Shown piece by piece: positions 2,743 through 60,702 of a stretch of 64,000 nt of DNA. The stretch spans positions 41,296 through 105,295 of the forward strand of contig CAYTFU010000002.1 of the NCBI GenBank assembly GCA_964437185.1. Reading direction: 5' to 3'. Made by a program: the position numbers and the translations under genes. Source of the stretch: an uncultured Candidatus Saccharibacteria bacterium (GTDB lineage: Bacteria > Patescibacteriota > Minisyncoccia > Phycocordibacterales > UBA2100). The notes below the pieces were generated by a model, which saw nothing but the letters and a program-made list of their open reading frames with translations, was not told where the DNA came from and did not search any database. Position 1 is the stretch's first letter. Each line of letters opens with the position of its first letter.

Positions 2743-2743
2743 G

Positions 2744-3619
2744 ATGCGCTTTCTTTCGTCTCGACAACTCGTTATTTCTGTAGCGGTGATTGCGTTGCTC
2801 GCGACGTACGGAGCCTACTTCTATTCACGTGAAGAGCCTCCAGAAGTGCAACAAGAGGTCGTCGCACCTGCTCCCGCCTACACGCGTGCGGTTATCGGCC
2901 ACTCCGTGGAAGGTCGCGCTATCGAAGCGTTTACATACGGCGCCGGTGCGAGGCAACTTTTGTTTGTCGGCGGTATGCATGGGGGATACGAGTGGAACAG
3001 CGTGCTTCTTGCGTACGAAATGATGGATTACCTCGTGCAACATCCGGATTTCGTCCCGAGTGGCATGAGCGTTACCATAATCCCTGTAGCCAATCCCGAT
3101 GGTCTCTATAGAATCGTGAACAAAGAGGGGAGGTTTACGCTCACCGACGTTCCATCGGACACAGATCAATCGCCCGGCCGATTCAATGCCCATGAAGTCG
3201 ATCTCAATCGCAACTTCGACTGCAAATGGCAGCCTGAGAGCATGTGGAAGAGTCGCACTGTGAGCGGCGGCACAGCGGCATTTTCTGAGCCTGAGAGCCG
3301 CGCCCTTCGCGATTTTGTTCTCACGCACAAACCTGTCGCCGTCGTCTTTTGGCACAGTAAGGCAAATGCTGTGTATGCGTCGGAGTGCGAGAATGGGATT
3401 TTGCCCATCACGCGCGACATTATGAGCGCCTACGCAGGCGCCGCTGGTTATCCTGCAGTCGATAGCTTCGATAGCTACTCGGTGACTGGAGACGCAGAAG
3501 GGTGGCTCGCTTCCATTGCGATACCAGCGATAACGGTCGAGCTTAAGACACACGAAGATATCGAGTGGGACAAAAATCTTTTGGGAGTGACTGCGCTCGT
3601 CAAATATTTTTCAAAGTAA
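2744..3619 (+). CDS. M14-like zinc carboxypeptidase (MpaA / gamma-D-Glu-mDAP peptidase-like)
   Basis: Tandem paralog of 1831-2742. GGMHGGYEWN, NPDG and DLNRNFD motifs, and it retains FWHS (His) and ITVEL (Glu). Confidence 0.75.
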   Translation: MRFLSSRQLVISVAVIALLATYGAYFYSREEPPEVQQEVVAPAPAYTRAVIGHSVEGRAIEAFTYGAGARQLLFVGGMHGGYEWNSVLLAYEMMDYLVQHPDFVPSGMSVTIIPVANPDGLYRIVNKEGRFTLTDVPSDTDQSPGRFNAHEVDLNRNFDCKWQPESMWKSRTVSGGTAAFSEPESRALRDFVLTHKPVAVVFWHSKANAVYASECENGILPITRDIMSAYAGAAGYPAVDSFDSYSVTGDAEGWLASIAIPAITVELKTHEDIEWDKNLLGVTALVKYFSK

Positions 3620-3653
3620 TCTTACAGTGAGTGTGACGTGCTATAAATAGCGT

Positions 3654-4604
3654 ATGGACCAGGTAGGCGCTCCTCATCCAAATGCAGTCCACAAAAAACA
3701 TCTGTGGATGTTTGGCGCCATACTAGCGATCGTTGTCGGCGGTGCATTTGTGTTTACGGGGGTGAAAATCGTATCGCTCAACACAGAAATTGCGCGTCTC
3801 ACGTCGGATATCGCCTCAACCACTTCGGTGCTCTACGGGACAGCGGGCACGCTCTCCAAAAATATTTCCGATTTGAGTACCGAAACAAAGGGGATATCGC
3901 AAGATCTCTCGAATACCAAAGAAAATATTGCAACGGTCAAAGATCAGGTAGGCGGCGTGCAGCAGACGCTCGGCTCCGTTTCGGGCACCGTTTCTACACT
4001 TCAAAAGCTTTCTACTATTGATGCTGAGCTTTTGAAAAAATACTCAAAGGTGTATTTTCTCAACGAAAATTACACGCCCGCCCACCTCTCTGTACTGCCG
4101 CAAGACATAATCTACAGTAATACTCGTCCCGAAAGCTTTCTTACCGAAGCCGCGCCTGCACTCGTCCGAATGATGACGGCGGCGAAGGCCGATGGCGTCT
4201 CAATGTATGTATTTTCTGCGTTTCGATCGTTCGCAAAGCAGCAGACTCTAAAATCTCAATACACATTCACCTATGGCGCCGGCACCGCGAGCACTTTTTC
4301 GGCAGATCAGGGCTACTCTGAACACCAACTCGGGACAACGGTCGATGTCATCGCGCCCGGCCTCGGTGGAGAATTGACCGTCGCTTTTGAAAAAACCCCG
4401 GCGTTTGCATGGCTTATGGCCAATGCGCACAAATTCGGATTTCACCTCTCCTATCCGCGCAACAATACATACTACGTGTACGAGCCCTGGCACTGGCGCT
4501 ACGTGGGCGTAAAACTTGCCACGTACCTGCACGAACAAAACCTCAATTTCTACGACATGGATCAACGCACGATTGATACTTATCTGGCAAATCTATTCGA
4601 CTGA
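3654..4604 (+). CDS. VanY/M15B-type D-alanyl-D-alanine carboxypeptidase, membrane anchored with coiled-coil spacer
   Basis: SAFRSFAKQ, SEHQLGTTVD and EPWHWRYVG motifs, plus an N-terminal TM helix. Confidence 0.8.
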   Translation: MDQVGAPHPNAVHKKHLWMFGAILAIVVGGAFVFTGVKIVSLNTEIARLTSDIASTTSVLYGTAGTLSKNISDLSTETKGISQDLSNTKENIATVKDQVGGVQQTLGSVSGTVSTLQKLSTIDAELLKKYSKVYFLNENYTPAHLSVLPQDIIYSNTRPESFLTEAAPALVRMMTAAKADGVSMYVFSAFRSFAKQQTLKSQYTFTYGAGTASTFSADQGYSEHQLGTTVDVIAPGLGGELTVAFEKTPAFAWLMANAHKFGFHLSYPRNNTYYVYEPWHWRYVGVKLATYLHEQNLNFYDMDQRTIDTYLANLFD

Positions 4605-4658: not shown

Positions 4659-5660
4659 GTGAATACTCAAAATCACGGTATTCTGAGTAGTGTGTTTCCG
4701 CATACACGGCTGCGCCGTTTGAGAAAAACTGAGGCACTGCGAACGCTAACCCGGGAGCAGAGGCTTTCTATCGACGATTTGATTTATCCGATTTTCGTCG
4801 AGGAAAATATACAAGCCCCTATTCCAGTAGAGACGATGCCTGGCGTGTTTCGAATTCCGGAGAGAAATCTAGACGATGAGGTGCGAGCGATCGCATCAGA
4901 TGGAGTGAAAGCAATTATGATGTTCGGTGTCTCGCACAAAAAAGACCCCACGGGAAGCGATTCTTTGAGTCAAAGCGGTCTCATGGCGCGCATGATTAGG
5001 TGCGCAAAAAAAGCGGCTCCAGAGATGATCGTGATTTCCGACAATTGCTTTTGCGAATACACTGATCATGGACATTGCGGCGTAGTTCGTGACGGTTATG
5101 TGGACAACGACCTTTCGATTAAAAACCTAGCGCGTCAGACTGTCGTAGCTGTCGAAGCTGGCGCCGACATGGTGGCGCCCTCTTCGATGTTGGACGGCCA
5201 AGTACAGGCGATTCGGCAGACGCTCGACGCAGCGGGCCATGGCGACATCCCGATTATGGCGTATTCTACGAAATTCGCTTCCTGCTTTTACGGTCCTTTT
5301 CGCAACGCCGCGGGATCAACACTACAAGGCGACCGAAAAACCTATCAGATGGATCCCTCGAACACTCGAGAGGCAATACGAGAATCCTTGCTAGATGAAA
5401 GCGAGGGCGCGGACATTCTTATGGTAAAGCCTGCACTTCCGTATCTCGACATTCTGTCGAAACTGCGAAAACGAAGCCTATTACCAATAGCCGCTTATCA
5501 AGTAAGTGGTGAATACGCAATGATCAAATTTGCTGCCCAAGCTGGTGCCATTGATGAGCGGCGCGCGGTACTTGAAACGCTCGGGGCGATACAAAGAGCT
5601 GGTGCCGATATTATTCTCACATATTTTGCTCGTAGTCTCGCTCGAGAAGGTATCATATGA
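4659..5660 (+). CDS. hemB: porphobilinogen synthase (ALA dehydratase)
   Basis: RLRRLRK N-terminus, [18 protein letters not shown] and [10 protein letters not shown] motifs. GTG start; an alternative GTG lies at 4692. Confidence 0.92.
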
Positions 5661-5706
5661 ATAATGCCCGTTATGTACTGAATGATCGAAGGGAAAAGCA
5701 GCAATA

Positions 5707-6612
5707 ATGAAAACAATTCTGATTAAAATTGGTTCTCGTGGAAGCGAACTTGCACTTAAGCAAACAGATATCGTATTCGCGGCGCTTAAGGCAGCGGACC
5801 CATCTGTTTCCGTCGAGGTGCACGTAGTCCAAACACGCGGCGACGTTGACCAGCAACCGATTCCTCTCGACACCATAGGCAAGGGGTGGTTCACGAGAGA
5901 AATAGAAGATGAGCTTTTGCGGGGTGAAATCGACATCGCTGTGCATAGTCTCAAAGATATGGCGGAAGGCATGCCGCCGGGCCTCATGATTGGAGCATAT
6001 CTTCCGCGTGAAGACGCGCGCGATGTTCTTATTACAAAAAACGGCGTGTCATATCAGGAATTAAAGCGGGGAGCAATAATCGGTACCGACAGTTCGCGCA
6101 GGCAGGTACAAATGCTTGCCCTCCGACCTGACGCACGGATGAAAAGCATACGCGGGAATGTGCCGACGCGTCTCCAAAAGCTACAATCTGAAGAATACGA
6201 CGCAATTATTCTTGCTGCAGCGGGTTTAAAACGTCTTGGAATGGAAAAAAAAATCACTCATTATTTTGCCTTGACGGATATCATTCCAGCGCCCGGGCAG
6301 GGAATTCTTGCCGTACAAACACGAAGGGACGACACCGAGTTGGAACAAATACTCGCGCGAATCAACGATCTTGAGGCGGCGCAAGCGGCAACTTTGGAGA
6401 GATTGTTCTCGCGTACCGTCGGAGGCGGATGCAAAGCTCCGACAGGAGCCTACGCCGTAAAGGGACCAGAAGGATGGACATTGACGGCAATGATTGCTGC
6501 AGCAAATGGCCGAATCATCCGGGGAGAAATGAGTACCCAATTAGATGGCGATTTTCAGATCGGCCAACAGCTCGCGAAGAGTCTTCTTATTACCCGTGAT
6601 GCGGAAAAATAA
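5707..6612 (+). CDS. hemC: hydroxymethylbilane synthase (porphobilinogen deaminase)
   Basis: IGSRGSELALKQT, AVHSLKD, RGNVPTRL and GGGCKAP motifs. Confidence 0.92.
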   Translation: MKTILIKIGSRGSELALKQTDIVFAALKAADPSVSVEVHVVQTRGDVDQQPIPLDTIGKGWFTREIEDELLRGEIDIAVHSLKDMAEGMPPGLMIGAYLPREDARDVLITKNGVSYQELKRGAIIGTDSSRRQVQMLALRPDARMKSIRGNVPTRLQKLQSEEYDAIILAAAGLKRLGMEKKITHYFALTDIIPAPGQGILAVQTRRDDTELEQILARINDLEAAQAATLERLFSRTVGGGCKAPTGAYAVKGPEGWTLTAMIAAANGRIIRGEMSTQLDGDFQIGQQLAKSLLITRDAEK

Positions 6613-6613
6613 A

Positions 6614-7159
6614 ATGGAAATAGGCATAGATATTAAGGCGCTGTCGCTGTCGCGAAGCACAATTAGCGTTCTTCGCAATATTGCTCGATACGACCTCATT
6701 GTTTTTACAAGCAAAAATGCACAAAACTTCTTCAAGAGAGCACTCTCGCGGCTTCAAATAAAGCTGCCGAGGAGCAGCGGGATTGTGCGAGTGGGGCCCC
6801 GAAATGATCTTCTTAAACTTGCCGTGCGGGGGAAGCGGATACTATTTCCGCGCTCCGCTCTAGCTCCGCATGACATTATCAGAGGCTTGCGGTCTAAAGG
6901 ATGCTCGGTACGTGTCATTACTCTATACACAGCACATGGCACAAAATTATCCAAAAAACAAAGACAATTGATACTTAGCGGGAACATTGAGAGATTGTAT
7001 TTCAAAAGCCCTTCTGGCGTACGAGGACTTTTGCAGCAAATGCGGGGACGAAATAAAAAGTTAGTACTTTCAATTCTTGCAGAATGCCTCGGCAAAACTA
7101 CCGCAAGTGCGGCAAAAGCGGAGGGCTTTAAAAAAGTGGTAGTTGCAGGCATACTGTAA
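6614..7159 (+). CDS. hemD: uroporphyrinogen-III synthase, short form
   Basis: IVFTSKNAQNFF and FKSPSGVRGLL (the two FTSxxAV-type motifs) plus RILFPRS. Only 181 aa, so it lacks about 60 N-terminal residues of typical HemD. ATG lies 1 nt after the hemC stop. Confidence 0.7.
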   Translation: MEIGIDIKALSLSRSTISVLRNIARYDLIVFTSKNAQNFFKRALSRLQIKLPRSSGIVRVGPRNDLLKLAVRGKRILFPRSALAPHDIIRGLRSKGCSVRVITLYTAHGTKLSKKQRQLILSGNIERLYFKSPSGVRGLLQQMRGRNKKLVLSILAECLGKTTASAAKAEGFKKVVVAGIL

Positions 7160-7164
7160 GACCT

Positions 7165-7821
7165 ATGCGATACCACAGCTATATTTTTTTCGATGTATGC
7201 CAGAGCTTCCCTGTACCGTCGGCTGCAAAAATCAATACGTACAAAAAGGGTTTTGCTGCGATAGTGGAAAACAATGTCGATGTTGGTGTGCGAGCCTACG
7301 GGACACTAGCACTTAAATCCGGTACGCGATTTATGTTACACATGAATGCAGGTTCTCCCGATGCGATACAGCTTCTTACGCGAAACTTATTGCACTCCGA
7401 GCTCGGGAGGCTTCTCACGATACGCTACACGCTCATGGGCATAACCCGATCATCGCAGTACAATCCAAAATCGGCCCCAAAAGAAAGCGTGCCAGATATG
7501 CCTCATCGCTATCTTGTGGTGTATCCATTCACGAAAACTATCGAATGGTATTTAATGCCGTACGATGAGCGACGGGGTATCATGAAGTCCCACGTTGATG
7601 TCGGCCGCAAATTTAGCAAGAACATATCGCAGCTTCTCTTGTACTCATACGGCATAGACGATCATGAATTCATCGTGTCATACCAAATGAGTGATCTGGA
7701 AGAATTCCAAACCCTCGTGATGGAAATGCGTGAGACCGAAAGCCGTCGTCACACGAAAAATGACCTGCCAATATTCACCTGTATACACATGTCACTTCCC
7801 GAGGCACTCGACATGGTATGA
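7165..7821 (+). CDS. chdC: chlorite dismutase-family coproheme decarboxylase (HemQ/ChdC)
   Basis: YLVVYPFTKTIEWYLMPYDERRGIMKSH...GIDDHEFIVSY pattern typical of HemQ; sits inside the heme cluster. Confidence 0.8.
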   Translation: MRYHSYIFFDVCQSFPVPSAAKINTYKKGFAAIVENNVDVGVRAYGTLALKSGTRFMLHMNAGSPDAIQLLTRNLLHSELGRLLTIRYTLMGITRSSQYNPKSAPKESVPDMPHRYLVVYPFTKTIEWYLMPYDERRGIMKSHVDVGRKFSKNISQLLLYSYGIDDHEFIVSYQMSDLEEFQTLVMEMRETESRRHTKNDLPIFTCIHMSLPEALDMV

Positions 7822-8825
7822 ATGATACATTTCTCCGTGCGGCAAGAGGAGAAAAAACGGAGCAAATCCCGATTTGGTTTATGCGCCAGGCTGGACGATC
7901 GCTTCCTGGCTACCGCAAACTTCGCGAGAAATACAGCGTGCTGGAGCTCGCGCAGACGCCGGAACTCGCAGCGCAGGTCTCAATCGAGCCAGTAGAGCGA
8001 CTGGGAGTGGACGCCGCGATACTCTTTGCAGACATTATGCTTCTGCCTTTGGCGCTCGGTGTAAAACTCGAAATTGTGGATTCTGTGGGCCCTGTTATAG
8101 ACTCACCGATCGAGAGCAGAGCAGATATAGAGCGCCTCCTACCTTTTAAGAAAAGCAATATAACGTACCTGGGAGACACCATTAGACTCCTGCGGCAACG
8201 TCTTGATGTGCCGGTCATCGGTTTTTCTGGCGCTCCTTTCACACTGGCCTCCTACCTCATAGAAGGTAGGCCGACGCGCGACTGGAAGAAGACCAAGAAA
8301 TTCATGCTCGAGGAGCCGGAGTTGTGGGAGCTTTTAATGCGAAAACTTTCGGATTCAGTCATTGGCTACCTAGACGTACAGATACAGGCAGGAGCGCAGG
8401 CAGTGCAACTTTTCGACAGTTGGGCGGGATGTCTTTCGCCAACTGACTACAGGACGCACGTGCTACCGCATGCTCGGAAGATATTTTCCGCCCTGAAAGA
8501 ACGTAAGGTGCCGCGGATACACTTCGGCACGGATACCGGCGCCATGCTGGAGGATTTCGCCGATGTGGACTGCGAAGTCATCGGTGTGGATTGGCGAGTA
8601 GATCTCTCAAAAGCGAGAGAATTGGTCGGCAAGAAAGCGCTGCAAGGCAATCTCGACCCGGCAGTGCTTCTGTGCGATTGGTCTGTAGTCGAAAAGAAGG
8701 TAGACGAGATGCTTTTCAACCTTGGGAACGCGAAAGGTTACATATTCAATCTAGGGCACGGTGTATTGCCTCAAACCGACGACAAGCAGATCAAGCGGCT
8801 TGTCGAATACGTGCATGGTAAATAA
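7818..8825 (+). CDS. hemE: uroporphyrinogen decarboxylase
   Basis: PIWFMRQAGRSLPGY and ILFADI motifs with full-length similarity. ATGA overlap with chdC. Confidence 0.93.
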   Translation: MNDTFLRAARGEKTEQIPIWFMRQAGRSLPGYRKLREKYSVLELAQTPELAAQVSIEPVERLGVDAAILFADIMLLPLALGVKLEIVDSVGPVIDSPIESRADIERLLPFKKSNITYLGDTIRLLRQRLDVPVIGFSGAPFTLASYLIEGRPTRDWKKTKKFMLEEPELWELLMRKLSDSVIGYLDVQIQAGAQAVQLFDSWAGCLSPTDYRTHVLPHARKIFSALKERKVPRIHFGTDTGAMLEDFADVDCEVIGVDWRVDLSKARELVGKKALQGNLDPAVLLCDWSVVEKKVDEMLFNLGNAKGYIFNLGHGVLPQTDDKQIKRLVEYVHGK

Positions 8826-23727: not shown

Positions 23728-24216
23728 ATGGACCTCAATGCGTGGTCAAGCGTTCTTTCGTCGTGGCCGCACGACTGGATTCTTATCGGCGGCATCGCAA
23801 TTTTCGTCTCGCTCGACGCGATGCGCTCTGGCTCTGCCCGCGCGGCGTCGATCGCGCTAGCCTTGCCTGCAACTCTTTTTGCCTTCAACGCAATTCCTCA
23901 GGCTTATTTTTTGGGGCCATTGCTCGCTGAATACACCGCACCAATTGTCCACATTGTTTTATTTGTCGTGTTCTTCGCACTCATTTTTTTCACTACATAT
24001 CGTACCGTCTTTGGCGCATCGGATGGGGGGCGGGTCTTACAATCGCTCCTCATCGGCCTCGCGGCCACGGCCGCTATTGTGCTCGTATGGATTCAGGTGC
24101 CAGCTCTTGAATACGCATGGCATTTTGGCGACCAAGTGCAGGCCGTCTTCGCCCCTGCGCTTAGGCTGTGGTGGTATGTCGCAATTTTCACTTCGCTTGC
24201 GTTTGCGCGGAGTTAA
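23728..24216 (+). CDS. hypothetical polytopic membrane protein
   Basis: 162 aa with 4-5 hydrophobic helices. Its last 19 codons are repeated at 25775-25834. Confidence 0.6.
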   Translation: MDLNAWSSVLSSWPHDWILIGGIAIFVSLDAMRSGSARAASIALALPATLFAFNAIPQAYFLGPLLAEYTAPIVHIVLFVVFFALIFFTTYRTVFGASDGGRVLQSLLIGLAATAAIVLVWIQVPALEYAWHFGDQVQAVFAPALRLWWYVAIFTSLAFARS

Positions 24217-24222
24217 AAGGTA

Positions 24223-24251
24223 TTGGTAAATCCGCGCGAATGTGGCATAAT
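24223..24251 (+). promoter_or_regulatory. sigma70-like promoter at the island's left edge
   Basis: TTGGTA, 17 nt spacer, CATAAT with an upstream TGg, 8 nt before the MNT ATG. Confidence 0.35.
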
Positions 24252-24259
24252 GCGATCGT

Positions 24260-24667
24260 ATGGTAGCCAATTTTACACTCACAGAAACTCAACGATCGGC
24301 TATTGAAAAGCTTGGCGTTGTCCTTTTGTATCTACATGGCTCGGTGGCTGCTGGCACCGCGCGCGCAAACAGTGATGTAGACATTGCTGTTTTATTTGAA
24401 ACTACGCCGCGGGACTCGATTAGCGCGACGACCGCGGTCACGGAGGCTCTACGCGGATTGGTACCGCAACGTGAGATGGATATCGCCATACTCAATGAAG
24501 CAAATCCGCTGCTGAAACAAATAGTCGCCTCGACCGGCAATCTCCTGTACGCGCGTACAACTGACGACGCATTGAAATTTGAGCTGCGCGCCATGCACGA
24601 TTACGAATATTCTCGCCATGTCGTCCGTCTGGGGCAGGAACTTATTTTGCGCAACGTGAGCGTATGA
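24260..24667 (+). CDS. minimal nucleotidyltransferase (MNT-type antitoxin)
   Basis: LYLHGSVAAGTARANSDVDIAVLF (GSx10-ish DxD pol-beta NTase motif). ATGA overlap with the downstream HEPN gene. Confidence 0.8.
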   Translation: MVANFTLTETQRSAIEKLGVVLLYLHGSVAAGTARANSDVDIAVLFETTPRDSISATTAVTEALRGLVPQREMDIAILNEANPLLKQIVASTGNLLYARTTDDALKFELRAMHDYEYSRHVVRLGQELILRNVSV

Positions 24668-25095
24668 CCGAATTTTCTCGAGAATTACTCATGGGCAAAT
24701 TGGTGCAGTGCAGCGAGGCACTCACCGATCTGCAGCGATACCGCGAGGTCGGAACTTTGGATTACCTGCGCGACCACCAGGACATATATTACGCTGTATG
24801 TTATCGGTTTATCGGTGGCATCGAAGCCTTATTTGATGCTGGCCAAATAATTCTGGCGAGCCACGGACAGCATGCAGCCGGTGACGGCGACATACCCGTA
24901 CTTCTTGGGCGAAGGAAAATTATATCTGACGAGCTGGCTAGTGCATTCACCAATATGTACGGTTTTCGCAATCGGCTGGTGCACGCCTACGGCACGCTCG
25001 ATGATTCCAAGGTGGCCGAGTACCTTCAGAGGCATCTTGTAGATATCGAGGAGCTTATCAGTGTATTTCGAGACACGGTGACAAGCTCGGAGTGA
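24664..25095 (+). CDS. HEPN/DUF86 domain protein (HepT-like toxin)
   Basis: RNRLVHAYGTLD (Rx4-6H HEPN motif) near the C-terminus; paired with MNT. Confidence 0.8.
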   Translation: MTEFSRELLMGKLVQCSEALTDLQRYREVGTLDYLRDHQDIYYAVCYRFIGGIEALFDAGQIILASHGQHAAGDGDIPVLLGRRKIISDELASAFTNMYGFRNRLVHAYGTLDDSKVAEYLQRHLVDIEELISVFRDTVTSSE

Positions 25096-25128
25096 AGGCG
25101 AATGAGGATCAGATAGTAAATAGTCATT

Positions 25129-25608
25129 ATGGGGGAGATCGAGATACAGTCCTTGGTGGCTGAGGTCGATCGGGAGGCGGTAGAGTTTTGCCGCGAGATT
25201 TATTCTGAAATGGGATGGCCTGAACATGCCCTAGGTTCAAGCGTCGCGGCACTATTCAGTGAACCTGGTGATGCTTTTGTGACCATCAAGCAGGCCGGAA
25301 AAATTATCGGTACCGGTGGTTTTCTACGACTCTCAAAAGAAGAAGCGGTATTAAAAAGGTTTTACCTCGCAAAACATGTACGCGGTAGTGATCTCGCGCC
25401 GCGATTATTTGCCGATCTCGTAGATAGGGCGCGAGTCATTGGGTACTCCGTGCTCCTTGTGGATGTTTCTTCAACCAACGTACGTGCGATACGATTCTAT
25501 GAGAAGGAGGGTATGAAGGAGTTTTTTGGTGTCTCACCCCACCCGCGCTGGGAAGGATCCTCACCCGAAAGGCAGAAAACTGACCGATATTTTCGCTTAA
25601 AACTCTAA
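25129..25608 (+). CDS. GNAT family N-acetyltransferase
   Basis: 159 aa with the pattern LAKHVRGSDLAPRLFADLVDRARVIGYSVLLVDVSSTNVRAIRFYEKEGM (acetyl-CoA binding motif A region). Confidence 0.75.
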   Translation: MGEIEIQSLVAEVDREAVEFCREIYSEMGWPEHALGSSVAALFSEPGDAFVTIKQAGKIIGTGGFLRLSKEEAVLKRFYLAKHVRGSDLAPRLFADLVDRARVIGYSVLLVDVSSTNVRAIRFYEKEGMKEFFGVSPHPRWEGSSPERQKTDRYFRLKL

Positions 25609-25774
25609 TTCAACCTGAGGTGATCCATGCTTCATTTTCACATTGTCGCCCGCAAGAGAGCGGAGTAGTTCCGTCAGAGAAACAGAGAATTTACCACAGC
25701 CCTCTCTTGCCTTATCGACAGCAAGGTTTAGAGTACACCCTATGGGTGCGTTTTCATGGAGACTTCTCGAGGAC

Positions 25775-25834
25775 GCACTAAGACGGTGGTGGTATGTCGC
25801 AATCTTCACTTCGCTTGCGTTTGCAAGAAGCTGA
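25775..25834 (+). pseudogene. orphan 3' fragment of a diverged allele of the 23728-24216 membrane-protein gene
   Basis: Encodes ALRRWWYVAIFTSLAFARS-stop versus ALRLWWYVAIFTSLAFARS-stop. Of 10 nt differences, 9 are synonymous or stop-to-stop. Confidence 0.6.
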
Positions 25835-25856
25835 GAAAATCAGCGCCTCCATACCT

Positions 25857-25884
25857 TTGCACTGGCTGATTTACGTGTTATAAT
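25857..25884 (+). promoter_or_regulatory. strong sigma70-like promoter, possibly giving a leaderless transcript
   Basis: TTGCAC, 16 nt spacer, (TGt)TATAAT. The ATG of the DMT transporter lies only 6 nt after the -10 box. Confidence 0.45.
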
Positions 25885-25890
25885 CTGAAT

Positions 25891-28274: not shown

Positions 28275-29792
28275 ATGAGGAAATTCAAAACGGTCTTCGA
28301 GCAGTTGCCCACGCCCGTTAGCATCGCCGTTTTGCTCGTCATAATTGTGATTGTTATTACCACCTCGTGGACGCTATACAATCACACGGTCGACATTCTC
28401 ACGCAGAATTTAAGAGACCGTTTGCAGACTATCTCTGTTACCCAAGCGGCCAATGTCGATGCCTCGGATATTGAGGCACTTCAGGTAGAGGAGGATTGGA
28501 AAAAACCAGAGTGGGAACATCTGGTAAGTAAATTGCACAAAGCAAAGTACAGTAATGGTCAAATTGTTTTTATATACATTTTCCGAAAAACCAAGGATGA
28601 CCCGACCAAAATGGAATTCGTTGCAGACGCTGATTCAATTGACCCATATGCAAACATTAACAATAATCCAACCGGAGAAATAGTTTCCGCATCAACATGC
28701 CCTTTGTGCGTTGACTCCAACAGAGATGGAAAAATCGACAGAGAACATGCTGATAGGCTGCAGTGGCCCGGCATGCTGTTCCCCGAAATAGAAGGTGTGC
28801 CGGAAGCTTTTGCGGCATATAACGGCCCGATTACTGTGCCGGATATTTACACGGACGAATACGGCTCAGTTCTTACGGGCTTTGCTCCCATCACAAACGC
28901 AAGCGGGACTGTCGTAGCGATTCTGGGAACCGACATAAAAGCCGACGACTTTCTCACAATCACAAGGCAGACGCTGTATCCGTTTCTTGCGTTTATCGCC
29001 GCGCTGACGCTGATTATCGCCGTTTTGGCGGCATCGCTCATTTATATTTGGTCTCGACGTGCAAACATGTTAGCAAGACTTTCGCGTAGCCTAGAAATAG
29101 CTAATGCCCAGCAGGAAGGCCTTTTGCACTTTATTAGTCATGAGATCAAGGGCTACCTTACCAACAGCGAAGCAGGGTTTGCTTCCATCGCGGAGGGGGA
29201 TTACGGAGAGGTTACCCCTCAATTGAAAACCATGGCCACAAGCGCCCTCGCGAATGTCCGCAGGGGAGTGAGCACGGTGGTCGACATACTTCGTGCGGCG
29301 GATATGAAGCGAGGCACGGTCTCGTACAGAAAAGACCCTGTCGACGTGCGAGCGGTCGTCGAGAATGTTATCAACACACTTCGACCAAACGTCACAGAAA
29401 AAGGCCTAACTCTCGAGACCAACATCGCAGATGGGTCGTACACCACCTCGGGCGATGAGGAGAAACTTCGCAACAACGTCCTCCGCAACCTCATCGACAA
29501 CGCCATCCGATACACGCCGACCGGAACGATTACCATCAGCCTTTCCAACGCTGGCGGTACAATACGTTTTTCGGTAAAGGACAGCGGTGTCGGAATTACT
29601 GAGGAGGATAAGAAGCGATTATTTACTGAGGGTGGGCACGGCAAAGAATCCATAAAAACCAACGTCCATTCCACCGGCTACGGCCTCTTTATCGCAAAGC
29701 AAGTAGTAGACGCCCACGGCGGCAAAATCTGGGCCGAATCGGAAGGGGAGGGCAAAGGCTCCACGTTTGTTGTAGAGCTCCCCACTGCATAG
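28275..29792 (+). CDS. sensor histidine kinase with periplasmic Cache-like sensor; no adjacent response regulator
   Basis: Two TM helices, H-box FISHEIKGYL, N-box NLIDNAIRYTP, and DSGVGI...GYGLFIAKQVVDAHGG. TATAAT at 28264-28269. Confidence 0.9.
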   Translation: MRKFKTVFEQLPTPVSIAVLLVIIVIVITTSWTLYNHTVDILTQNLRDRLQTISVTQAANVDASDIEALQVEEDWKKPEWEHLVSKLHKAKYSNGQIVFIYIFRKTKDDPTKMEFVADADSIDPYANINNNPTGEIVSASTCPLCVDSNRDGKIDREHADRLQWPGMLFPEIEGVPEAFAAYNGPITVPDIYTDEYGSVLTGFAPITNASGTVVAILGTDIKADDFLTITRQTLYPFLAFIAALTLIIAVLAASLIYIWSRRANMLARLSRSLEIANAQQEGLLHFISHEIKGYLTNSEAGFASIAEGDYGEVTPQLKTMATSALANVRRGVSTVVDILRAADMKRGTVSYRKDPVDVRAVVENVINTLRPNVTEKGLTLETNIADGSYTTSGDEEKLRNNVLRNLIDNAIRYTPTGTITISLSNAGGTIRFSVKDSGVGITEEDKKRLFTEGGHGKESIKTNVHSTGYGLFIAKQVVDAHGGKIWAESEGEGKGSTFVVELPTA

Positions 29793-29806
29793 TAGAATGC
29801 GTTGGT

Positions 29807-30055
29807 ATGTTGACGAACAAAGATATAGACAAGATGATAAAGGTTTTCGCTACTAAGGAAGACATCCGGAGCGTCACCGATAGACTCGACAGGCTGGAAT
29901 CCTTGGTTCGCGGTCTTCTAACTGGGGTGGACAAACTCGCGACGAGTGTCGACAAATTGCTTTTGGAGTATGCGGCAGTCAGCGAACAACTTACGCGCCA
30001 CGAGAGGTGGATCAAACAAATCGCAAAAAAGTCTGGCGTGATGCTCGCGGACTAG
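29807..30055 (+). CDS. small coiled-coil protein, family member A
   Basis: 82 aa. The C-terminal EYAAVSEQLTRHERWIKQIAKKSGVMLAD aligns with the ORF at 60378-60653. Confidence 0.65.
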   Translation: MLTNKDIDKMIKVFATKEDIRSVTDRLDRLESLVRGLLTGVDKLATSVDKLLLEYAAVSEQLTRHERWIKQIAKKSGVMLAD

Positions 30056-30085
30056 CAGTGCATTAGACTTGATTCTTTTCTATAA

Positions 30086-30175
30086 AAAGTAGACACTCGC
30101 AAGTGCAAAATCTGGGCCGAATCGGAAGGGGAGGGCAAAGGCTCCACCTTCATTGTCGAACTTCCCGCAGCTTAA
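30086..30175 (+). pseudogene. orphan 3' fragment of a diverged histidine-kinase allele
   Basis: Reads KVDTRKCKIWAESEGEGKGSTFIVELPAA-stop versus the HK C-terminus VVDAHGGKIWAESEGEGKGSTFVVELPTA-stop. A 43-bp core is identical (30105-30147 = 29722-29764). Confidence 0.65.
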
Positions 30176-30207
30176 AATATCGACGATTTTCTGCTATCAT
30201 AGGTCGC

Positions 30208-31143
30208 ATGACACGCCTTTTTACTGGCCTCCAGCCATCTGGATCGCTTCATATTGGCAACTATTTTGGCGCACTGAAGCAGACCGTCGAGCTTCTTCGA
30301 GACGCGGACGGATTGGTGATGATTGCGGATTACCATGCCCTCACGAGCCTCAAAGATGTACCCGCGCTTCGAAAAAATATTGGAGATGTGGTGCGCGATT
30401 ACGTGGCGGTGGGAGTTGATCCAAAGAAGGCGGTGATCTTTCAGCAGTCCTCCGTTTCGGCGCACACTGAGCTCGCATGGATTTTTGATTGCCTCGTCAC
30501 AGTTCCATTTCTCATGCAGGCCCACGCATACAAAGATAAAGTAGCAAAAGGATTGGAGGCCAACGCCGGCCTCTTCACATATCCCATGCTCATGGCTGCG
30601 GATATATTGCTCTACGACACCGACGTCGTACCCGTGGGCGCCGACCAGAGGCAGCACGTCGAGTACGCGCGCGAGGCCGCGACAAAGTTTAACAACGCAT
30701 TTGGCGAGACGTTTAGAATTCCGCAAGAAAAGATTCTTGACTCAGTCGCAATTGTGCCTGGTACCGATGGCAAAAAAATGAGCAAGAGCTATGGCAACAC
30801 TATCCCGCTGTTCGGTACTAAGGACGAAATCCAAAAAGCGGTGATGAGCATCGTTACCGACTCAAATGCAGAGAGCCCTGAAAACGTATACAACATTCAC
30901 CGACTTTTTAGGAGGAGGGAGGAGCTTTCCGTACTTTACACAGAGAACAAAGGGAAATATAAGGCTCTAAAAGACGCGCTCGTCGAGGATATTGAAGGCA
31001 TGATCGCCCCGATGCGCGCGCGACGCGAGAGTCTTACCGATGAGGATGTGCGGGCGATTCTTAAGGATGGGGGCGATAGGGCGCGTGAGCAAGCCGACAA
31101 AAAAATGTCTATTATTCGCCAAGCGGTCGGCGTGGCAATATAA
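30208..31143 (+). CDS. trpS: tryptophanyl-tRNA synthetase
   Basis: TGLQPSGSLHIGNYFGA (HIGH) and KKMSKS motifs. The ORF-track GTG start at 30103 runs through the HK remnant in another frame and is rejected. Confidence 0.93.
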   Translation: MTRLFTGLQPSGSLHIGNYFGALKQTVELLRDADGLVMIADYHALTSLKDVPALRKNIGDVVRDYVAVGVDPKKAVIFQQSSVSAHTELAWIFDCLVTVPFLMQAHAYKDKVAKGLEANAGLFTYPMLMAADILLYDTDVVPVGADQRQHVEYAREAATKFNNAFGETFRIPQEKILDSVAIVPGTDGKKMSKSYGNTIPLFGTKDEIQKAVMSIVTDSNAESPENVYNIHRLFRRREELSVLYTENKGKYKALKDALVEDIEGMIAPMRARRESLTDEDVRAILKDGGDRAREQADKKMSIIRQAVGVAI

Positions 31144-31166: not shown

Positions 31167-32573
31167 ATGGCAAGAACGTTCATCAAGGATTTGCAAAACG
31201 CTGTCGACACGACGGTACTCATCAAGGGCTGGGTGTCGGTGCGGCGAGATCAAGGCAAGATGGTCTTTTTCGATTTTCGCGATATGACAGGCACGGTACA
31301 GGGCGTCGTCCTGCCGGGAAGCGCAGCGATAGAGATTGCAAAAAACACGAGCCGCGAGAGCGTGGTCTACGTGACGGCTGAGGTCAAACAACGGCCTGAA
31401 AAGAATAGACAACACGGTAAACAAAACGGCGACATTGAACTGGTCGTTACCGAACTTACCGTGGAGAGTCCGTCGGCGGTCCTGCCGTTTGAGGTTAATG
31501 AAGATACGTTTGGCATCGGGGAAGAAACTCGGCTCGAACACCGCTACCTTGATCTCCGAAGCGAGCGCATGCAGCGCAATCTGCGCCTGCGCAGCGAATT
31601 CGTGCGACGCTGTCGAGACTTTCTTTTTGAAAATTTATTTACAGAAATCGAGACGCCGCTTCTTACCGAATCTACTCCCGAAGGCTCTCGAGATTTCGTG
31701 GTGCCCTCGCGCCTTCATCCAGGCAAATTTTATGCGCTGCCGCAGTCGCCGCAACAATACAAACAATTGCTTATGGTAGGCGGCTTCGAGCGCTATTTTC
31801 AAATCGCGCGAGCAGTGCGTGACGAAGACCTGCGGGCGGATCGAGGATTTGAGCACACCCAGGTAGACATTGAGATGTCTTTTGTCGACCAGGAAGAGGT
31901 CATGCAGACGATAGAAGCGATGATCACGACCTCGGTGGAGGCGATGGGATTTACTGTGAAGCAAAAACCATTTCCTCGCCTTACTCACGCCGAATCAATG
32001 GAACGATATGGAGCCGACAAATTTGATTCGCGCACAGAGGAGGAAAAGAAAGAGGGGATACTTGCATTTGCGTGGGTCTATAAGTTTCCTTTCTTTGAAA
32101 AAACTCCTGAGGGCGGATGGACCTTTACACACAATCCGTTTTCAATGCCTATTGCCGAGCACATAGACAATGTCTTGCAAAAGAAAGACATTGGGGAAAT
32201 CTTAACGACGCAATACGATCTTGTGTGCAATGGATTCGAATCGGGTGGGGGCAGCATACGATCACATCGAGCCGATATACTGCGCGCGACCTACGAGATT
32301 ATGGGGTATTCGGAGAGCGAGACGGACGAGCGCATCGGGCACATGCTTCGCGCGTTTGAGTACGGCACGCCGCCACACGGCGGCATTGCGATTGGCGTCG
32401 AGCGCATTATCATGAATCTGACAGGGGAGTCGTACCTGCGAGAAGTGCAGGCATTTCCGATGACGCGCGGCGGCCAAACGGCCGTTATGAGCGCCCCGAA
32501 GCCGCTCACGAAAGAGCAGCTCGCAGAATTGCATATCTCAATTCAACCAGATAAGAAGCATGGAACGATTTGA
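31167..32573 (+). CDS. aspS: aspartyl-tRNA synthetase, bacterial-type but lacking the GAD insertion domain
   Basis: FYALPQSPQQYKQLLM, FQIARAVRDEDLRADR and GGGSIR motifs. 468 aa; YGADKFD is followed almost directly by the motif-3 half. Confidence 0.92.
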   Translation: MARTFIKDLQNAVDTTVLIKGWVSVRRDQGKMVFFDFRDMTGTVQGVVLPGSAAIEIAKNTSRESVVYVTAEVKQRPEKNRQHGKQNGDIELVVTELTVESPSAVLPFEVNEDTFGIGEETRLEHRYLDLRSERMQRNLRLRSEFVRRCRDFLFENLFTEIETPLLTESTPEGSRDFVVPSRLHPGKFYALPQSPQQYKQLLMVGGFERYFQIARAVRDEDLRADRGFEHTQVDIEMSFVDQEEVMQTIEAMITTSVEAMGFTVKQKPFPRLTHAESMERYGADKFDSRTEEEKKEGILAFAWVYKFPFFEKTPEGGWTFTHNPFSMPIAEHIDNVLQKKDIGEILTTQYDLVCNGFESGGGSIRSHRADILRATYEIMGYSESETDERIGHMLRAFEYGTPPHGGIAIGVERIIMNLTGESYLREVQAFPMTRGGQTAVMSAPKPLTKEQLAELHISIQPDKKHGTI

Positions 32574-38928: not shown

Positions 38929-40272
38929 ATGAGTATCGTTAAGGTGCGTTTCCCACCGAGCCCGACGGGCTATTGCCATGTCGGCACCGCTCGAATGGCG
39001 ATTCTTAATTATTTATTTGCGCGAAAACACGGCGGGAGCATTGTATTTCGCAGCGAGGACACCGACAAGGAGCGCAGCCGCGCGGAGTACGAAGACGACA
39101 TTCGAGAAAGTCTTAGCTGGCTCGGACTTTCGTGGGACGAGTTTTATCGCCAGTCTGAGCGCACCCACGTATACACTACCGCGCTTCTACAACTCATCCG
39201 CGAGGGGAAAGCATACGTCTCCGAGGAGGAGAGTAAAAAAGAACCTGGCGTACGCGTGCGTCCGGTACGACTCAAAAACCCGGGCACCGTTATCACGTTT
39301 GCAGATGAGATCCGCGGTGAGATTACGTTTGATACGGCAGAACTCAAAGATTTTGTCATTGCGCGCTCGATCAACGATCCGCTGTATCACCTTGCAGTGG
39401 TCGTCGACGATCACGATATGGGGATCACGCACGTGATTCGCGGCGAAGATCACATCTCAAACACACCTCGGCAAATTCTGATTCAGGAGGCGCTTGGATA
39501 TTCGCGGCCCGTGTACGCGCACTACCCGCTGCACCTTTCAGCAGACAGAGCGAAGCTCTCTAAACGCACGGGCGATGTGGCCGTCCGATCGTATCGAGAA
39601 AAAGGATACCTGTCCGGAGCACTACTCAATTACCTCGCGACACTTGGCTGGACGCCACCATCGGGTAGGGAGATATTGAGTCTTGATGATATGGTCAGCG
39701 AATTTGAACTCAAAGACGTGCACAAAAGCGGGGCAATTTTCGATCTCGAAAAGTTGCGCTGGTACAACAGACACTACTTGCACGAACTTTCACCCGGAGA
39801 ATTTGCCGCAGAAGCGTCGATTATCCTCTCCGAAGAAATGCACACTCGCGGTATTACGGTCACAGACGACCTTGTACTAAAATTATGGCCGATTATACGC
39901 GAGCGAATAGGCGTGTGGGAGGATTTGCGTGAGGCGATTCGCGATGCCGAGTTTGATTTCTTTTTCAAAGACCCGGTATTGGATTCCGCCCGTATATCGC
40001 AAAAAGGAGTCGAGCCAAACGTGACGCTGAAGCACCTCGCCGCTTGTGCGGAGATGCTGACCTCTGTCACCGAGGAGGATTTTACCGAGTCACACATCAA
40101 GGATCGGCTGTGGCCCTACGCAACATCAGAGGGTCGCGGGGCTGTTTTATGGCCGCTACGATACGCGCTCTCGGGCCTCGAAAAATCACCGGACCCCTTT
40201 GTAATCCTCGGGATCATAGGGAAAGAGACGGCACTGAGGCGTATTGAGGCAGCTCGATCGCAGCTTGTATGA
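38929..40272 (+). CDS. gltX: glutamyl-tRNA synthetase
   Basis: RFPPSPTGYCHVGTAR (HIGH), THVIRGEDHISNTPRQ and KLSKR motifs. Confidence 0.93.
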   Translation: MSIVKVRFPPSPTGYCHVGTARMAILNYLFARKHGGSIVFRSEDTDKERSRAEYEDDIRESLSWLGLSWDEFYRQSERTHVYTTALLQLIREGKAYVSEEESKKEPGVRVRPVRLKNPGTVITFADEIRGEITFDTAELKDFVIARSINDPLYHLAVVVDDHDMGITHVIRGEDHISNTPRQILIQEALGYSRPVYAHYPLHLSADRAKLSKRTGDVAVRSYREKGYLSGALLNYLATLGWTPPSGREILSLDDMVSEFELKDVHKSGAIFDLEKLRWYNRHYLHELSPGEFAAEASIILSEEMHTRGITVTDDLVLKLWPIIRERIGVWEDLREAIRDAEFDFFFKDPVLDSARISQKGVEPNVTLKHLAACAEMLTSVTEEDFTESHIKDRLWPYATSEGRGAVLWPLRYALSGLEKSPDPFVILGIIGKETALRRIEAARSQLV

Positions 40273-41564
40273 ATAGAGGACTCGCCGTTATCTCGGTACT
40301 CTGCGTACTGCTGTGCTTACCGTCCAATTCCTTCGCCCAAAATGCGCCTGCCTCAGAGGAGCGCATCAACTCCTTACAATCGCAGATTGACACCCACAAA
40401 TCTGAGATCGAAAAAATTGACCGGGAAATTGCGCAATATCAACAGCAGCTTGACGCTGTCGGGACCAAAAAGAAAACACTTCAAAACACACTTTCGCAGC
40501 TGGATCTTCAGATAAAAAAAGCGACTGCGTCGATAAACGTCACAAAAAATAAAATTAGTGCAACGCAGCTCGAAATTCTCCAGCTTGAGAAGGGAATTGC
40601 AGGCAAAGAAGTTTCTATCGAAACGGGGAACCAGGGCCTGCGAGAGTCCCTGCGTCGACTCAATGAGATTGGAACCAATCCTCTTGCAGTGCAAGTGCTT
40701 TCCTCAATCGACATCTCCGAAGCGTGGGAAGACGCGGACGCTATTCAAGAACTCCAAGTGGCAGTGCGCGATCAAATCGCACGACTCGCTTCGGAGAAAC
40801 AATCACTCACGGAGACAAAAAACCAGACCGAGGCGAAGCGCGCGCAATTGGTGAAGCAAAAGGATACTCTGCTTGCGCAGCAAGGCTCGCTCACGGCTCA
40901 AAAAAAGGCGCAGAACGAGCTTCTCGTTCAGACCAAATCACAGGAATCCACCTACCAATCAATTTTGAAACAAAAACAGGCGGCAAAAGCCACGTTTGAA
41001 GCAGCGCTTGGTGATCTTAAAATCCAGTTCCAGAGAGCTATTAGGCCCTCGGAAATTTTGGCCGCCGGAAAGGGGATATTGCGCTGGCCGCTCGACAACG
41101 TGCGCATCACACAGCAATTTGGAAACACCGCCTTCGCGGCTTCTGGTGCATATAATGGCAAGGGACACAACGGCATCGACCTCGCCGCTCCCGTCGGCAC
41201 ACCGCTGAGAGCGGCTCTTAATGGCGTAGTTTTGGGGACGGGCAACACGGATAGCATAAAGGGCTGCTACTCATTTGGACGGTGGGTGATGATTAAGCAC
41301 CCCAATGGGATCAACACCATGTACTCGCACCTCTCCCAAATCAACGTTGCAGAGGGCCAAAACGTCGATACAGGGCACATAATCGGCTACAGCGGGGAAA
41401 CGGGCTATGCCACAGGCCCACACCTTCACTTCGGCGTGTACGTCAGCTCGGCAACGGCAATCATTCGCCTCGGCGCCGCGAGCAATTCGACCACCCCGTG
41501 CTCAAACGCCGTCATGCCCGTCGCACCCCTATCGGGATACTTAAATCCGATGAATTATCTCTAG
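40269..41564 (+). CDS. M23 family metallopeptidase with long N-terminal coiled coil (EnvC-like)
   Basis: Signal peptide, about 250 aa coiled coil, then HNGIDLAAPVGTPL and GYATGPHLHFGV. Confidence 0.88.
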   Translation: MNRGLAVISVLCVLLCLPSNSFAQNAPASEERINSLQSQIDTHKSEIEKIDREIAQYQQQLDAVGTKKKTLQNTLSQLDLQIKKATASINVTKNKISATQLEILQLEKGIAGKEVSIETGNQGLRESLRRLNEIGTNPLAVQVLSSIDISEAWEDADAIQELQVAVRDQIARLASEKQSLTETKNQTEAKRAQLVKQKDTLLAQQGSLTAQKKAQNELLVQTKSQESTYQSILKQKQAAKATFEAALGDLKIQFQRAIRPSEILAAGKGILRWPLDNVRITQQFGNTAFAASGAYNGKGHNGIDLAAPVGTPLRAALNGVVLGTGNTDSIKGCYSFGRWVMIKHPNGINTMYSHLSQINVAEGQNVDTGHIIGYSGETGYATGPHLHFGVYVSSATAIIRLGAASNSTTPCSNAVMPVAPLSGYLNPMNYL

Positions 41565-41597
41565 TACCGAGATACTCCTAACCTGAAATGAGTCTAG

Positions 41598-41620
41598 CCC
41601 CGTGGTGAAAACGCACGGGG
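41598..41620 (+). terminator. hairpin in the 55-bp spacer between the two M23 3'-end copies
   Basis: CCCCGTG-gtgaaaacg-CACGGGG. No U-tract. Confidence 0.3.
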
Positions 41621-41664
41621 TCGCACCCCTATCGGGATATCTAAATCCGATGAACTATCTCTAG
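41620..41664 (+). pseudogene. orphan second copy of the M23 peptidase 3' terminus
   Basis: 45 bp, 42/45 identical to 41520-41564 and exactly 100 bp downstream. All 3 differences are synonymous; both encode VAPLSGYLNPMNYL-stop. Confidence 0.6.
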
Positions 41665-59001: not shown

Positions 59002-60653
<1,652 letters not shown>

Positions 60654-60702
60654 AAATGACGATTATACGCGGTCTTAACAAAATTCCTAGTAGCTCCTTA
60701 CT

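Follow-up and report, generated by a model that had tools for sequence, protein, structure and literature searches.

How can the 3' end of a gene come to lie twice on one strand, once in place and once behind the next gene? The question is raised by a 64,000-nt stretch of DNA from an uncultured Candidatus Saccharibacteria bacterium (GenBank assembly GCA_964437185.1, contig CAYTFU010000002.1, positions 41,296 to 105,295; hereinafter referred to as the window), in which a histidine kinase (HK) gene is followed by a small gene encoding 82 amino acids, by a second copy of the HK 3' end, and by the tRNA synthetase gene trpS. A preliminary description of the window had proposed that the small gene, or a cassette carrying it, is or was mobile and inserts at gene termini while restoring them. 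Our analysis indicates that the segment was probably inserted laterally, by homology-anchored recombination in the conserved HK core, and that the old gene end was displaced in the process; the locus has the appearance neither of a self-mobile cassette nor of an element driven by an integrase.

Duplicated 3' end of the histidine kinase gene

The HK protein ends in ...VVDAHGGKIWAESEGEGKGSTFVVELPTA, and the final 87-88 nt of its gene recur at 30088-30175, at a spacing of 383 nt. The two copies (29705-29791 and 30088-30174) were 82% identical over 87 nt, with differences involving all four bases. Sequence comparison confirmed what had been described before, namely the repetition itself, a 43-nt identical core within it, and a following stretch of 28 nt with 10 differences and only two conservative amino acid changes. 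The core, whose peptide is also written KIWAESEGEGKGS, is the candidate site of strand exchange. On its 3' side, the differing positions amounted to seven synonymous codon changes, the stop codons TAG and TAA included, together with the replacements V to I and T to A; seven of the nine differing tail codons were thus synonymous. On its 5' side, four successive codons were radically different (AHGG in copy 1, TRKC in copy 2), preceded by seven identical bases, AGTAGAC. Because the codons left of core 2 are so changed, the second copy, which we refer to as the remnant, in effect begins at the core. It has no start codon, and a TAA lies just upstream in the HK frame. The 293 nt between the copies held one ORF only, that of the small gene (82 aa; 29807-30055), as previously stated.

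Given 17 differences in 88 nt, a perfect run of at least 43 nt had a probability of 5e-5 under random placement. The best match to the window core in any other lineage, among 44 distinct HK 3' ends from relatives, did not exceed 39 of 43 nt, and of 755 lineage pairs whose tails had diverged comparably, not one had a perfect core. The 43-nt identity is therefore not explained by general conservation. In addition, since seven of the nine tail codon differences are synonymous and the remnant is non-coding, the two copies diverged while both were functional, that is, in different genomes.

The copies look like alleles of two strains, and an assembly artefact, in which two co-occurring strains, one with and one without the small gene, were collapsed, had been considered in the preliminary description. 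This was not borne out. Two MEGAHIT contigs from two other samples (L011 and L012) carried the junctions base for base, apart from single-nucleotide polymorphisms (SNPs) in L011, so that the same junctions were present in three assemblies from different samples. Moreover, the junction leading from 30056-30104 into the core is absent from either hypothetical parental arrangement, and at k = 141 a shared block of 43 nt should not produce a cyclic de Bruijn graph. Both contigs begin inside HK and the three L011 SNPs cluster in copy 1, which would suit an artefact, but we regard this explanation as hardly credible; the duplication of the HK end is real. The three SNPs lay within 48 nt of copy 1 (L011 436-483, corresponding to window 29749-29796), one each in the core, the tail and the hexamer, where TAGAAT reads TAGCAT, and the remaining approximately 560 aligned nt, copy 2 included, were identical to the window.

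Two classes of element were considered and rejected. For a transposon or insertion sequence, no transposase was found, only one weak, distant inverted repeat was present, and the 88-nt repeat is non-identical and allelic in character. For a diversity-generating retroelement, there was no reverse transcriptase among the neighbours and the mismatches were not adenine-specific.

The remnant also affects the annotation of trpS. The mechanical ORF 30103-31143, starting at GTG 30103, over-extends the gene, and the in-frame N-terminal extension was confirmed to be spurious, the true start being 30208 (Table 1). The remnant should accordingly be annotated as a pseudogene fragment over which trpS is not extended, and HK as intact.

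Table 1. Coordinates of features at the HK-trpS locus and of related features in the window
Feature	Coordinates	Strand	Basis or remark
Histidine kinase (HK) gene, intact, 511 aa	28257-29792	+	Listed ORF; Pfam HATPase_c at residues 400-510
Core copy 1, 43-nt identity block encoding (G)KIWAESEGEGKGST	29722-29764	+	43/43 identical to 30105-30147
Replacement HK terminus, FVVELPTA-stop	29765-29792	+	10/28 nt differ from copy 2; contiguous with the TAG-TAGAAT junction
-10-like hexamer TAGAAT	29793-29798	+	Directly 3' of the HK stop, 8 nt before the small-gene ATG
Small gene, 82 aa, predicted single long helix	29807-30055	+	Uncharacterised Patescibacteria family
AT-rich spacer and junction	30056-30104	+	30088-30104 = AGTAGAC + 10 nt of a 12-nt non-HK patch running to 30106
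Displaced original HK terminus: core copy 2 (30105-30147) and tail FIVELPAA-stop (30148-30175)	30105-30175	+	Non-coding remnant
trpS promoter-like site: -35 TTAAAA overlapping the remnant stop; TG-extended -10 TATCAT 7 nt before ATG	30172-30200	+	Promoter scan
trpS, true start ATG 30208, 311 aa	30208-31143	+	Pfam tRNA-synt_1b; full-length alignment to relatives; start as in L011/L012
Second scar, first copy: 3' end of 162-aa membrane-protein gene	24168-24216	+	
Second scar, displaced copy ALRRWWYVAIFTSLAFARS-stop	25775-25834	+	After MNT/HepT + GNAT insert 24260-25608
Third scar: last 45 nt of M23 peptidase gene (40269-41564) repeated 100 nt downstream	41520-41664	+	
Small-gene paralogue between atpG and atpD	60378-60653	-	Own TATAAT 8 nt upstream of ATG

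Comparison with related lineages

Named homologues were from Candidatus Kaiserbacteria, and the locus was compared with about 100 Kaiserbacteria loci. The comparison drew on 80 metagenome loci with trpS 70-86% identical to that of the window. HK-trpS junctions without the insert, for which the preliminary description had suggested a search, were found in 14 lineages. At these empty sites a spacer of 20-43 nt is all that separates the HK stop from trpS, and the lineages include L068, L071, and L074, which are among the closest to the window by trpS (84-86% identity). The segment with the small gene is thus an insertion relative to the ancestral HK-trpS arrangement. In copy 2, 32 nt separate the stop from trpS, and the TTTTCTGCTAT-type -10 of the empty-site spacers recurs behind the stop. 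Copy 2 with its 32-nt spacer is colinear with the empty site, and copy 2 is therefore the original HK end; the best matches to its tail were found in two empty-site lineages, L068 and L127 (21/25). The earlier view of this copy as a diverged functional allele held insofar as it was once functional, but it is the original end, displaced and now non-coding. Conversely, the last 28 nt of the HK gene are the incoming replacement terminus. The proposal that the inserted segment restores a functional HK terminus was upheld, with two conservative changes and the frame intact.

Genes around the insert sided with the lineages that lack the small gene. The identity of trpS was 84-86% to these lineages versus 68-77% to small-gene lineages, and the corresponding values were 76-79% versus approximately 70% for aspS and 60-64% versus 48-56% for scpB. 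Upstream, the order OKR decarboxylase-HK was common to the window and the empty-site lineage L085. The small protein, in contrast, was 83-84% identical to those of L001/L148/L149, although it diverges faster than trpS in vertical comparisons (59 vs 74% and 46 vs 71%). On these identities it appears to be an outlier whose nearest relatives lie in another, more distant clade. With the backbone grouping with empty-site lineages and the small protein with the other clade, the foreign part would run from the core up to and including the small gene.

In the lineages of the small-gene subfamily, whose proteins were 59-84% identical, the HK stop was followed by TAGAAT or TACAAT, 6-9 nt, and the small-gene ATG. 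Next came trpS, 11-62 nt after the small-gene stop, in all of them except L005, where different genes follow. No second HK end was found in any other small-gene subfamily lineage examined. Taken alone, this synteny would point to nothing more than an ancestral small gene. The junction TAG-TA(G/C)AAT-N6-9-ATG occurred in all small-gene lineages, and only in these. Evidence for a lateral origin comes from the small gene and its junction, which are phylogenetically decoupled from trpS, aspS, and scpB, whereas the tail sequence alone gives weak support. A foreign replacement of trpS itself was rejected, because trpS from 30208 is 70-86% identical to its relatives. As a separate observation, aspS occurred in two types at the same syntenic position (L001, L007, and L092 compared with window 31167-32573), one of approximately 468 aa and 70-79% identical, the other of approximately 436 aa and 32-34% identical, which suggests in-place xenologous replacement in some lineages.

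The final structure would be identical if the polarity were reversed, that is, if the order HK-small gene-trpS were resident and a fragment from an empty-site lineage, reaching from the HK core into trpS-aspS, had come in by homology on the trpS side and been joined illegitimately after the small gene. The affinity of trpS and aspS to empty-site lineages would be compatible with such an event, and the HK body does not separate the clades. However, scpB, located approximately 3 kb further downstream, and the upstream order shared with L085 also side with empty-site lineages, so that the foreign tract would need to exceed 4 kb and to include the upstream side as well. In addition, the small gene is the only element with its nearest relatives in the other clade, and a reversed event leaves the perfect 43-nt core without a reason. 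We therefore consider the reversed polarity improbable.

Proposed insertion mechanism and comparable scars

We propose the following course of events for a homology-anchored insertion. In the ancestral state, as judged from the comparison, the HK stop would have lain approximately 32 nt before trpS, with the trpS promoter inside the spacer. The incoming DNA would have derived from another Kaiserbacteria lineage with the normal order HK-small gene-trpS and would have carried the donor HK 3' end, the small gene with its -10 abutting the HK stop, and the following spacer. Strand exchange may have occurred within the 43-nt core, the only stretch that would have been long and identical enough between the diverged HK alleles, and the right end of the insert may have been attached at the resident core or immediately to its left, with no homology involved. 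Two routes can be envisaged, either a single-crossover (Campbell-type) integration of a circularised fragment or an equivalent homology-facilitated illegitimate event. In the resulting structure, the HK frame is intact with two conservative changes in the last nine residues, the small gene would be expressed from its own predicted promoter, and the resident HK end has been moved 383 nt downstream as a non-coding remnant whose last bases still form the putative trpS -35 region. Host recombination functions would suffice, and neither the small gene nor a dedicated integrase would be required.

The terminus would travel with the small gene because the small-gene promoter overlaps the HK stop and the HK core provides the homology handle. 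The remnant may have persisted because the event was recent and because its last bases belong to the trpS promoter. A motif TTTTCTG(C/G)TAT(A/T)AT is kept before trpS in relatives, and 30062-30087 loosely resembles the spacer between the small gene and trpS in donor-type lineages (ATTAGA.TT...TTTTCT). Within 30056-30210, a regulatory RNA or T-box upstream of trpS was rejected, with no relevant Rfam match at E <= 1 and a folding z-score of 0.01. The segment 30056-30104 was also tried as a copy of the trpS promoter and first codons, and this was rejected since the local alignment was not significant (P = 0.08).

Several observations weigh against the proposed insertion. The resemblance of 30062-30104 to the trpS promoter was not significant (the same P = 0.08), and the 19 nt left of core 2, consisting of AGTAGAC and 12 scrambled nt, fit no simple version of the model. 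This 19-nt junction, AGTAGACACTCGCAAGTGC, had no meaningful match in 0.94 Mb of related sequence, two near-matches being at chance level. The tail of copy 1 was not clearly nearer to small-gene-linked termini (mean 16.8 vs 15.1 of 25), and the HK body, 60-67% identical to all clades, did not discriminate between them; an attempt to place the left crossover along HK was likewise abandoned, because binned identities do not separate the clades. The closest small-gene match reached only 84% amino acid identity, which puts the donor outside the sampled lineages. All five of five contigs with identical trpS carried the small gene, and none of them represented an empty-site variant of the same species. 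Furthermore, 43 nt of identity is little for RecA-dependent recombination, and the scan for recombinases covered 30 of the approximately 68 window ORFs, which leaves room for a recombinase acting in trans.

Four internal repeats were detected in the window at E < 1e-3, three of which were terminus scars, the HK scar included. The second scar (region 23728-25890) enclosed an MNT (Polbeta)/HepT toxin-antitoxin pair and a GNAT acetyltransferase, as assigned by Pfam; its 20 homologous codons showed eight synonymous differences and one non-synonymous difference, and the single relative context available (L164) had a different downstream neighbourhood. The insert of the third scar comprised 54 nt with a hairpin of a 7-bp stem (CCCCGTG...CACGGGG), and all three differences between its copies were synonymous (TAC/TAT, TTA/CTA, AAT/AAC). 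Outside the window, the last 95 nt of recA were repeated at 99% identity in L014 (Candidatus Taylorbacteria, 2934-3854), around a 124-aa ORF and a member of the small-gene family. In that locus, a 9-nt string, CGTTAAGCT, was common to the 3' end of the small gene and to recA just left of the duplicated block, and may represent microhomology or chance. No sequence was common to the cores of the L014 scar and the three scars in the window, and the cargo was unrelated as well. The same anatomy with unrelated cores and cargo points to a general homology-driven process, and the scar type, known as such, is unusually frequent in this genome. A repeat of another kind was also present: two tandem paralogues of 303 and 291 aa (1831-3619) shared a 68-nt stretch of 85% identity (2080-2147 and 2960-3027), as in ordinary tandem gene duplication.

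The third scar, a repeat of the same kind with a 100-nt period and almost nothing between the copies, could be taken to favour a local origin of the HK duplication, in which the HK 3' end was duplicated in tandem and diverged, gene conversion kept the core identical, and the small gene was resident or arrived independently. Gene conversion could in principle hold the core identical. The structure, however, is A-B-A and not A-B-A-B; the synonymous pattern in a non-coding remnant needs divergence in different genomes, as do the other two scars; and the linkage of the tail to the TAGAAT junction matches that in other lineages. A local duplication is therefore very improbable.

Among the loci compared, the HK-trpS junction in Kaiserbacteria relatives (L068-L147) is an insertion hot spot. 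Its cargo included a 201-222-aa protein without a Pfam match (L072, L077, L082, and L086), MazE with PemK/MazF (L086), an 82-aa ORF with a PIN toxin (L092), Amidase_3 with a peptidoglycan-binding domain (L147), an HAD hydrolase (L128 and L134), a DUF4258 protein (L097), and, in several other lineages, ORFs without assigned function. A repeat of the locus's own HK end was detected by blastn in only one of 21 occupied HK-trpS loci (L097; 101-105 nt at 88%), and in L134 at the protein level only. Two HK 3' fragments bracketed the cargo at L097 1639-2413, L128 1292-2967, and L134 1311-2967; in L128/L134 the second fragment lay 33 nt before trpS. No intact HK was detected upstream of the fragments in these three loci, which suggests that insertion occurred in several rounds and that the kinase itself was lost. 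In L105 (2020-2070), the HK stop directly abutted an 18-nt sequence, TTGCCTGCGTCTTCATAA, with which the terminus type found alongside L072/L077-type cargo ends, the two gene ends standing back to back; this appears to be another variant of terminus displacement. With occupied sites mostly free of repeats and with such a terminus type in L105, the cargo modules seem to travel with their own HK termini, duplication being the exception.

Restored gene ends are also known from site-specific integration. The prophage e14 and phage 21 integrate in icd of Escherichia coli and restore the icd 3' end. As in those cases, an identity block opens the repeat at HK, the remainder up to the stop codon is a substitute end with synonymous divergence, and the target remains functional. 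The segment might accordingly be a miniature element without an integrase, mobilised in trans in the manner of cis-mobilisable elements, for which the 43-nt core served as att site and the substitute HK 3' end kept the target gene active. Such an element would account for the classical attL/attR anatomy, with an identity block at the 5' edge, a diverged remainder that preserves the coding sequence up to the stop, and homology that ends essentially at the left edge of core 2. In the other two window scars and in L014, homology likewise ended within 0-19 nt of the identity block's left edge, and the HK-trpS junction was used repeatedly by different cargo.

Direct repeats of the att type with an identity block and a restored target 3' end are thus present, but a linked recombinase and a common core were not found. 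In agreement with the preliminary description, no recombinase domain was detected in the 30 window proteins scanned, which included all neighbours at 23.7-32.6 kb on both sides of the locus. Unlike in e14 and phage 21, there are no integrase or phage genes here, and the inserts measure only 0.05-1.6 kb. One recombinase cannot serve the three window scars and L014 alike, since their cores are unrelated. Most occupied HK-trpS sites lacked an HK-end repeat, whereas att-type integration always leaves one, and in all lineages of the small-gene clade examined the tail and the small gene sat without an attR. Moreover, the small-gene family had no relative in viral contigs of IMG/VR. Taken together, an integrated element of this type is unlikely.

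A closer parallel to the proposed insertion is the displacement of Rhs C-termini, in which the displaced tips still carry part of a core, identical to the upstream one, and for which homologous recombination with circular intermediates, without a dedicated recombinase, was proposed as the mechanism (Jackson et al. 2009, PMC2935791). The hallmark of a displaced fragment described there was present at HK, as 30105-30147 is identical to 29722-29764. As in Rhs loci, and also in orphan CdiA-CT/Rhs-CT arrays, an acquired 3' end with its downstream gene is joined to the conserved upstream part and the incumbent end is pushed downstream. The HK locus differs in that its tip consists of nine near-identical HATPase_c codons, functionally equivalent and not a variable toxin domain; in that the cargo encodes a small helical protein without a known-family match, not an immunity protein; and in that the target is a signalling kinase beside a housekeeping gene in a Patescibacteria genome. 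Furthermore, one displaced end was present in the window, unlike in Rhs arrays, while the relatives L097 and L128/L134 had two HK 3' fragments each.

Homology-facilitated illegitimate recombination was put forward for effector-immunity arrays of the type VI secretion system (T6SS) in Vibrio cholerae (Kirchberger et al. 2017, PMC5361080). There, too, the homologous anchor is one-sided, the far end is joined illegitimately, and the old 3' end and the downstream gene are shifted back. Clean homologous replacement is commoner in those arrays than scar-leaving events, which matches the mostly repeat-free occupied sites seen here. Two features are unlike the T6SS mechanism: a perfect identity block between the copies is not predicted when the anchor lies upstream, and the junction at HK lies upstream of the anchor's end, resulting in duplication and not in deletion. 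The HK-trpS junction also resembles flexible genomic islets in holding alternative cargo between conserved flanks (toxin-antitoxin pairs, amidase, HAD hydrolase, membrane proteins, or the small gene). Ordinary replacement in such islets leaves no duplication, in contrast to the window, which would represent a rarer, aberrant outcome.

The locus thus represents a dated and polarised example in which an uncultivated bacterium with a small genome would have gained a gene from a relative by way of a 43-nt identity patch in a conserved domain. The event spared both the upstream kinase and the promoter of the essential tRNA synthetase downstream. Homology-anchored insertion with terminus displacement is apparently not confined to polymorphic toxin loci, and these lineages may commonly gain genes in this way. 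No new mobile element or enzyme was revealed; the scar at this locus is of a known kind, and what is unusual is its setting and its density. A more speculative and rather doubtful extension is a recombinase-free cassette cycle as a routine means of gene acquisition in Kaiserbacteria, perhaps in Patescibacteria at large, in which short, strongly conserved 3'-end cores serve as att-like handles and the A-B-A structure loops out as a circle of core and cargo that re-enters genomes sharing the core. If such a cycle existed, each entry would deliver a replacement for the gene end, together with the cargo promoter wherever promoter and stop codon overlap; the three scars in 64 kb and the HK fragments of L097 and L128/L134 would then be traces of active gene flow and not isolated accidents.

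Small gene, its family and other features of the window

The small protein had no match above threshold in Pfam, PHROG, or NCBIfam. Its best Pfam match was DUF2730 (19.3 bits against a cut-off of 24.9), the others being weaker coiled-coil noise. AlphaFold2, run with a 17-sequence alignment, gave helices at residues 4-13 and 17-76 with a mean pLDDT of 89, and the product is probably a single-helix, coiled-coil protein. The features of the protein suggest neither an enzyme nor a recombinase.

A profile search yielded 1337 cluster representatives of the small-gene family at E <= 1e-3, mostly of 70-150 aa. The conserved motif was EYAA..QL.RHE.WIKQIA.K.G. In GTDB, with one genome per species, 55 loci of the family were found, nearly all of which were labelled Patescibacteria. 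A phage origin was rejected, given no relative in IMG/VR and no PHROG match, and no compositional signal of foreign DNA was found.

All HK-linked relatives kept the hexamer downstream of the HK stop, as TAGAAT or TACAAT, at a distance of 6-9 nt from the ATG, and this conservation suggests that TAGAAT acts as the -10 of the small gene. It scores 5/6 against TATAAT, whereas a possible -35, TTGTAG (29770-29775, with a 17-nt spacer), scores only 3/6, which is why the promoter scan did not flag the site. Boxes resembling a -10 were present 7-8 nt before the starts of the small gene, trpS, and the ATP-operon paralogue (29793-29809, 30195-30210, and 60654-60670), with no visible ribosome-binding site. 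With -10 boxes so near to the start codons and no visible ribosome-binding site, leaderless or near-leaderless transcripts are implied. Tandem arrays of family members were also observed (L015 3249-4318; L049 3449-4218; L052 112-832; L054 158-1220). In the arrays of L015, L049, and L054, promoter-like segments and/or hairpins were repeated almost exactly around the genes, as if promoter, gene, and terminator had been duplicated as a whole unit.

The paralogue inside the ATP synthase operon, noted in the preliminary description, is real (46-47% amino acid identity to the small gene product, E ~1e-15). No repeat flanks it in the window. The order atpG-small gene-atpD was also present in L050, L061, and L156, with an extra 117-aa ORF between atpG and the small gene in L156. 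In L158, a family member lay upstream of atpD, atpG was absent, and topA was the upstream neighbour. The L050 copy at atpD was only 43% identical, while atpD was 93% identical (window region 60378-60705), which suggests fast evolution or allele replacement at the atpD site.

The idea of the small gene as a mobile unit that targets gene termini was not supported. Other subfamily lineages have it in the same HK-linked position without a repeat, and the paralogue sits beside atpD in several lineages, with no flanking repeat in the window. The 55 family loci in other Patescibacteria had differing contexts and no common boundary sequence, a repeat of the upstream gene's terminus being found in L014 (recA) only. 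Terminus repeats were thus present at one of 55 family loci, compared with three of approximately 68 gene ends in the window, which gives no sign that the small gene specifically associates with terminus scars. The mostly repeat-free state of other cargo at HK-trpS also counts against its mobility, as do the unrelated cores and cargo of the other two window scars. Alignment of the copies with their flanks across related genomes, as the preliminary description had proposed for defining cassette boundaries, revealed no common boundary or general terminus duplication, and cassette mobility fails by that description's own measure.

Further upstream, the window carried a haem-biosynthesis cluster (4659-8825) encoding ALAD, porphobilinogen deaminase, a chlorite-dismutase-like (HemQ-type) protein, and uroporphyrinogen decarboxylase, a capacity that is, to our knowledge, unusual for a Patescibacteria genome.

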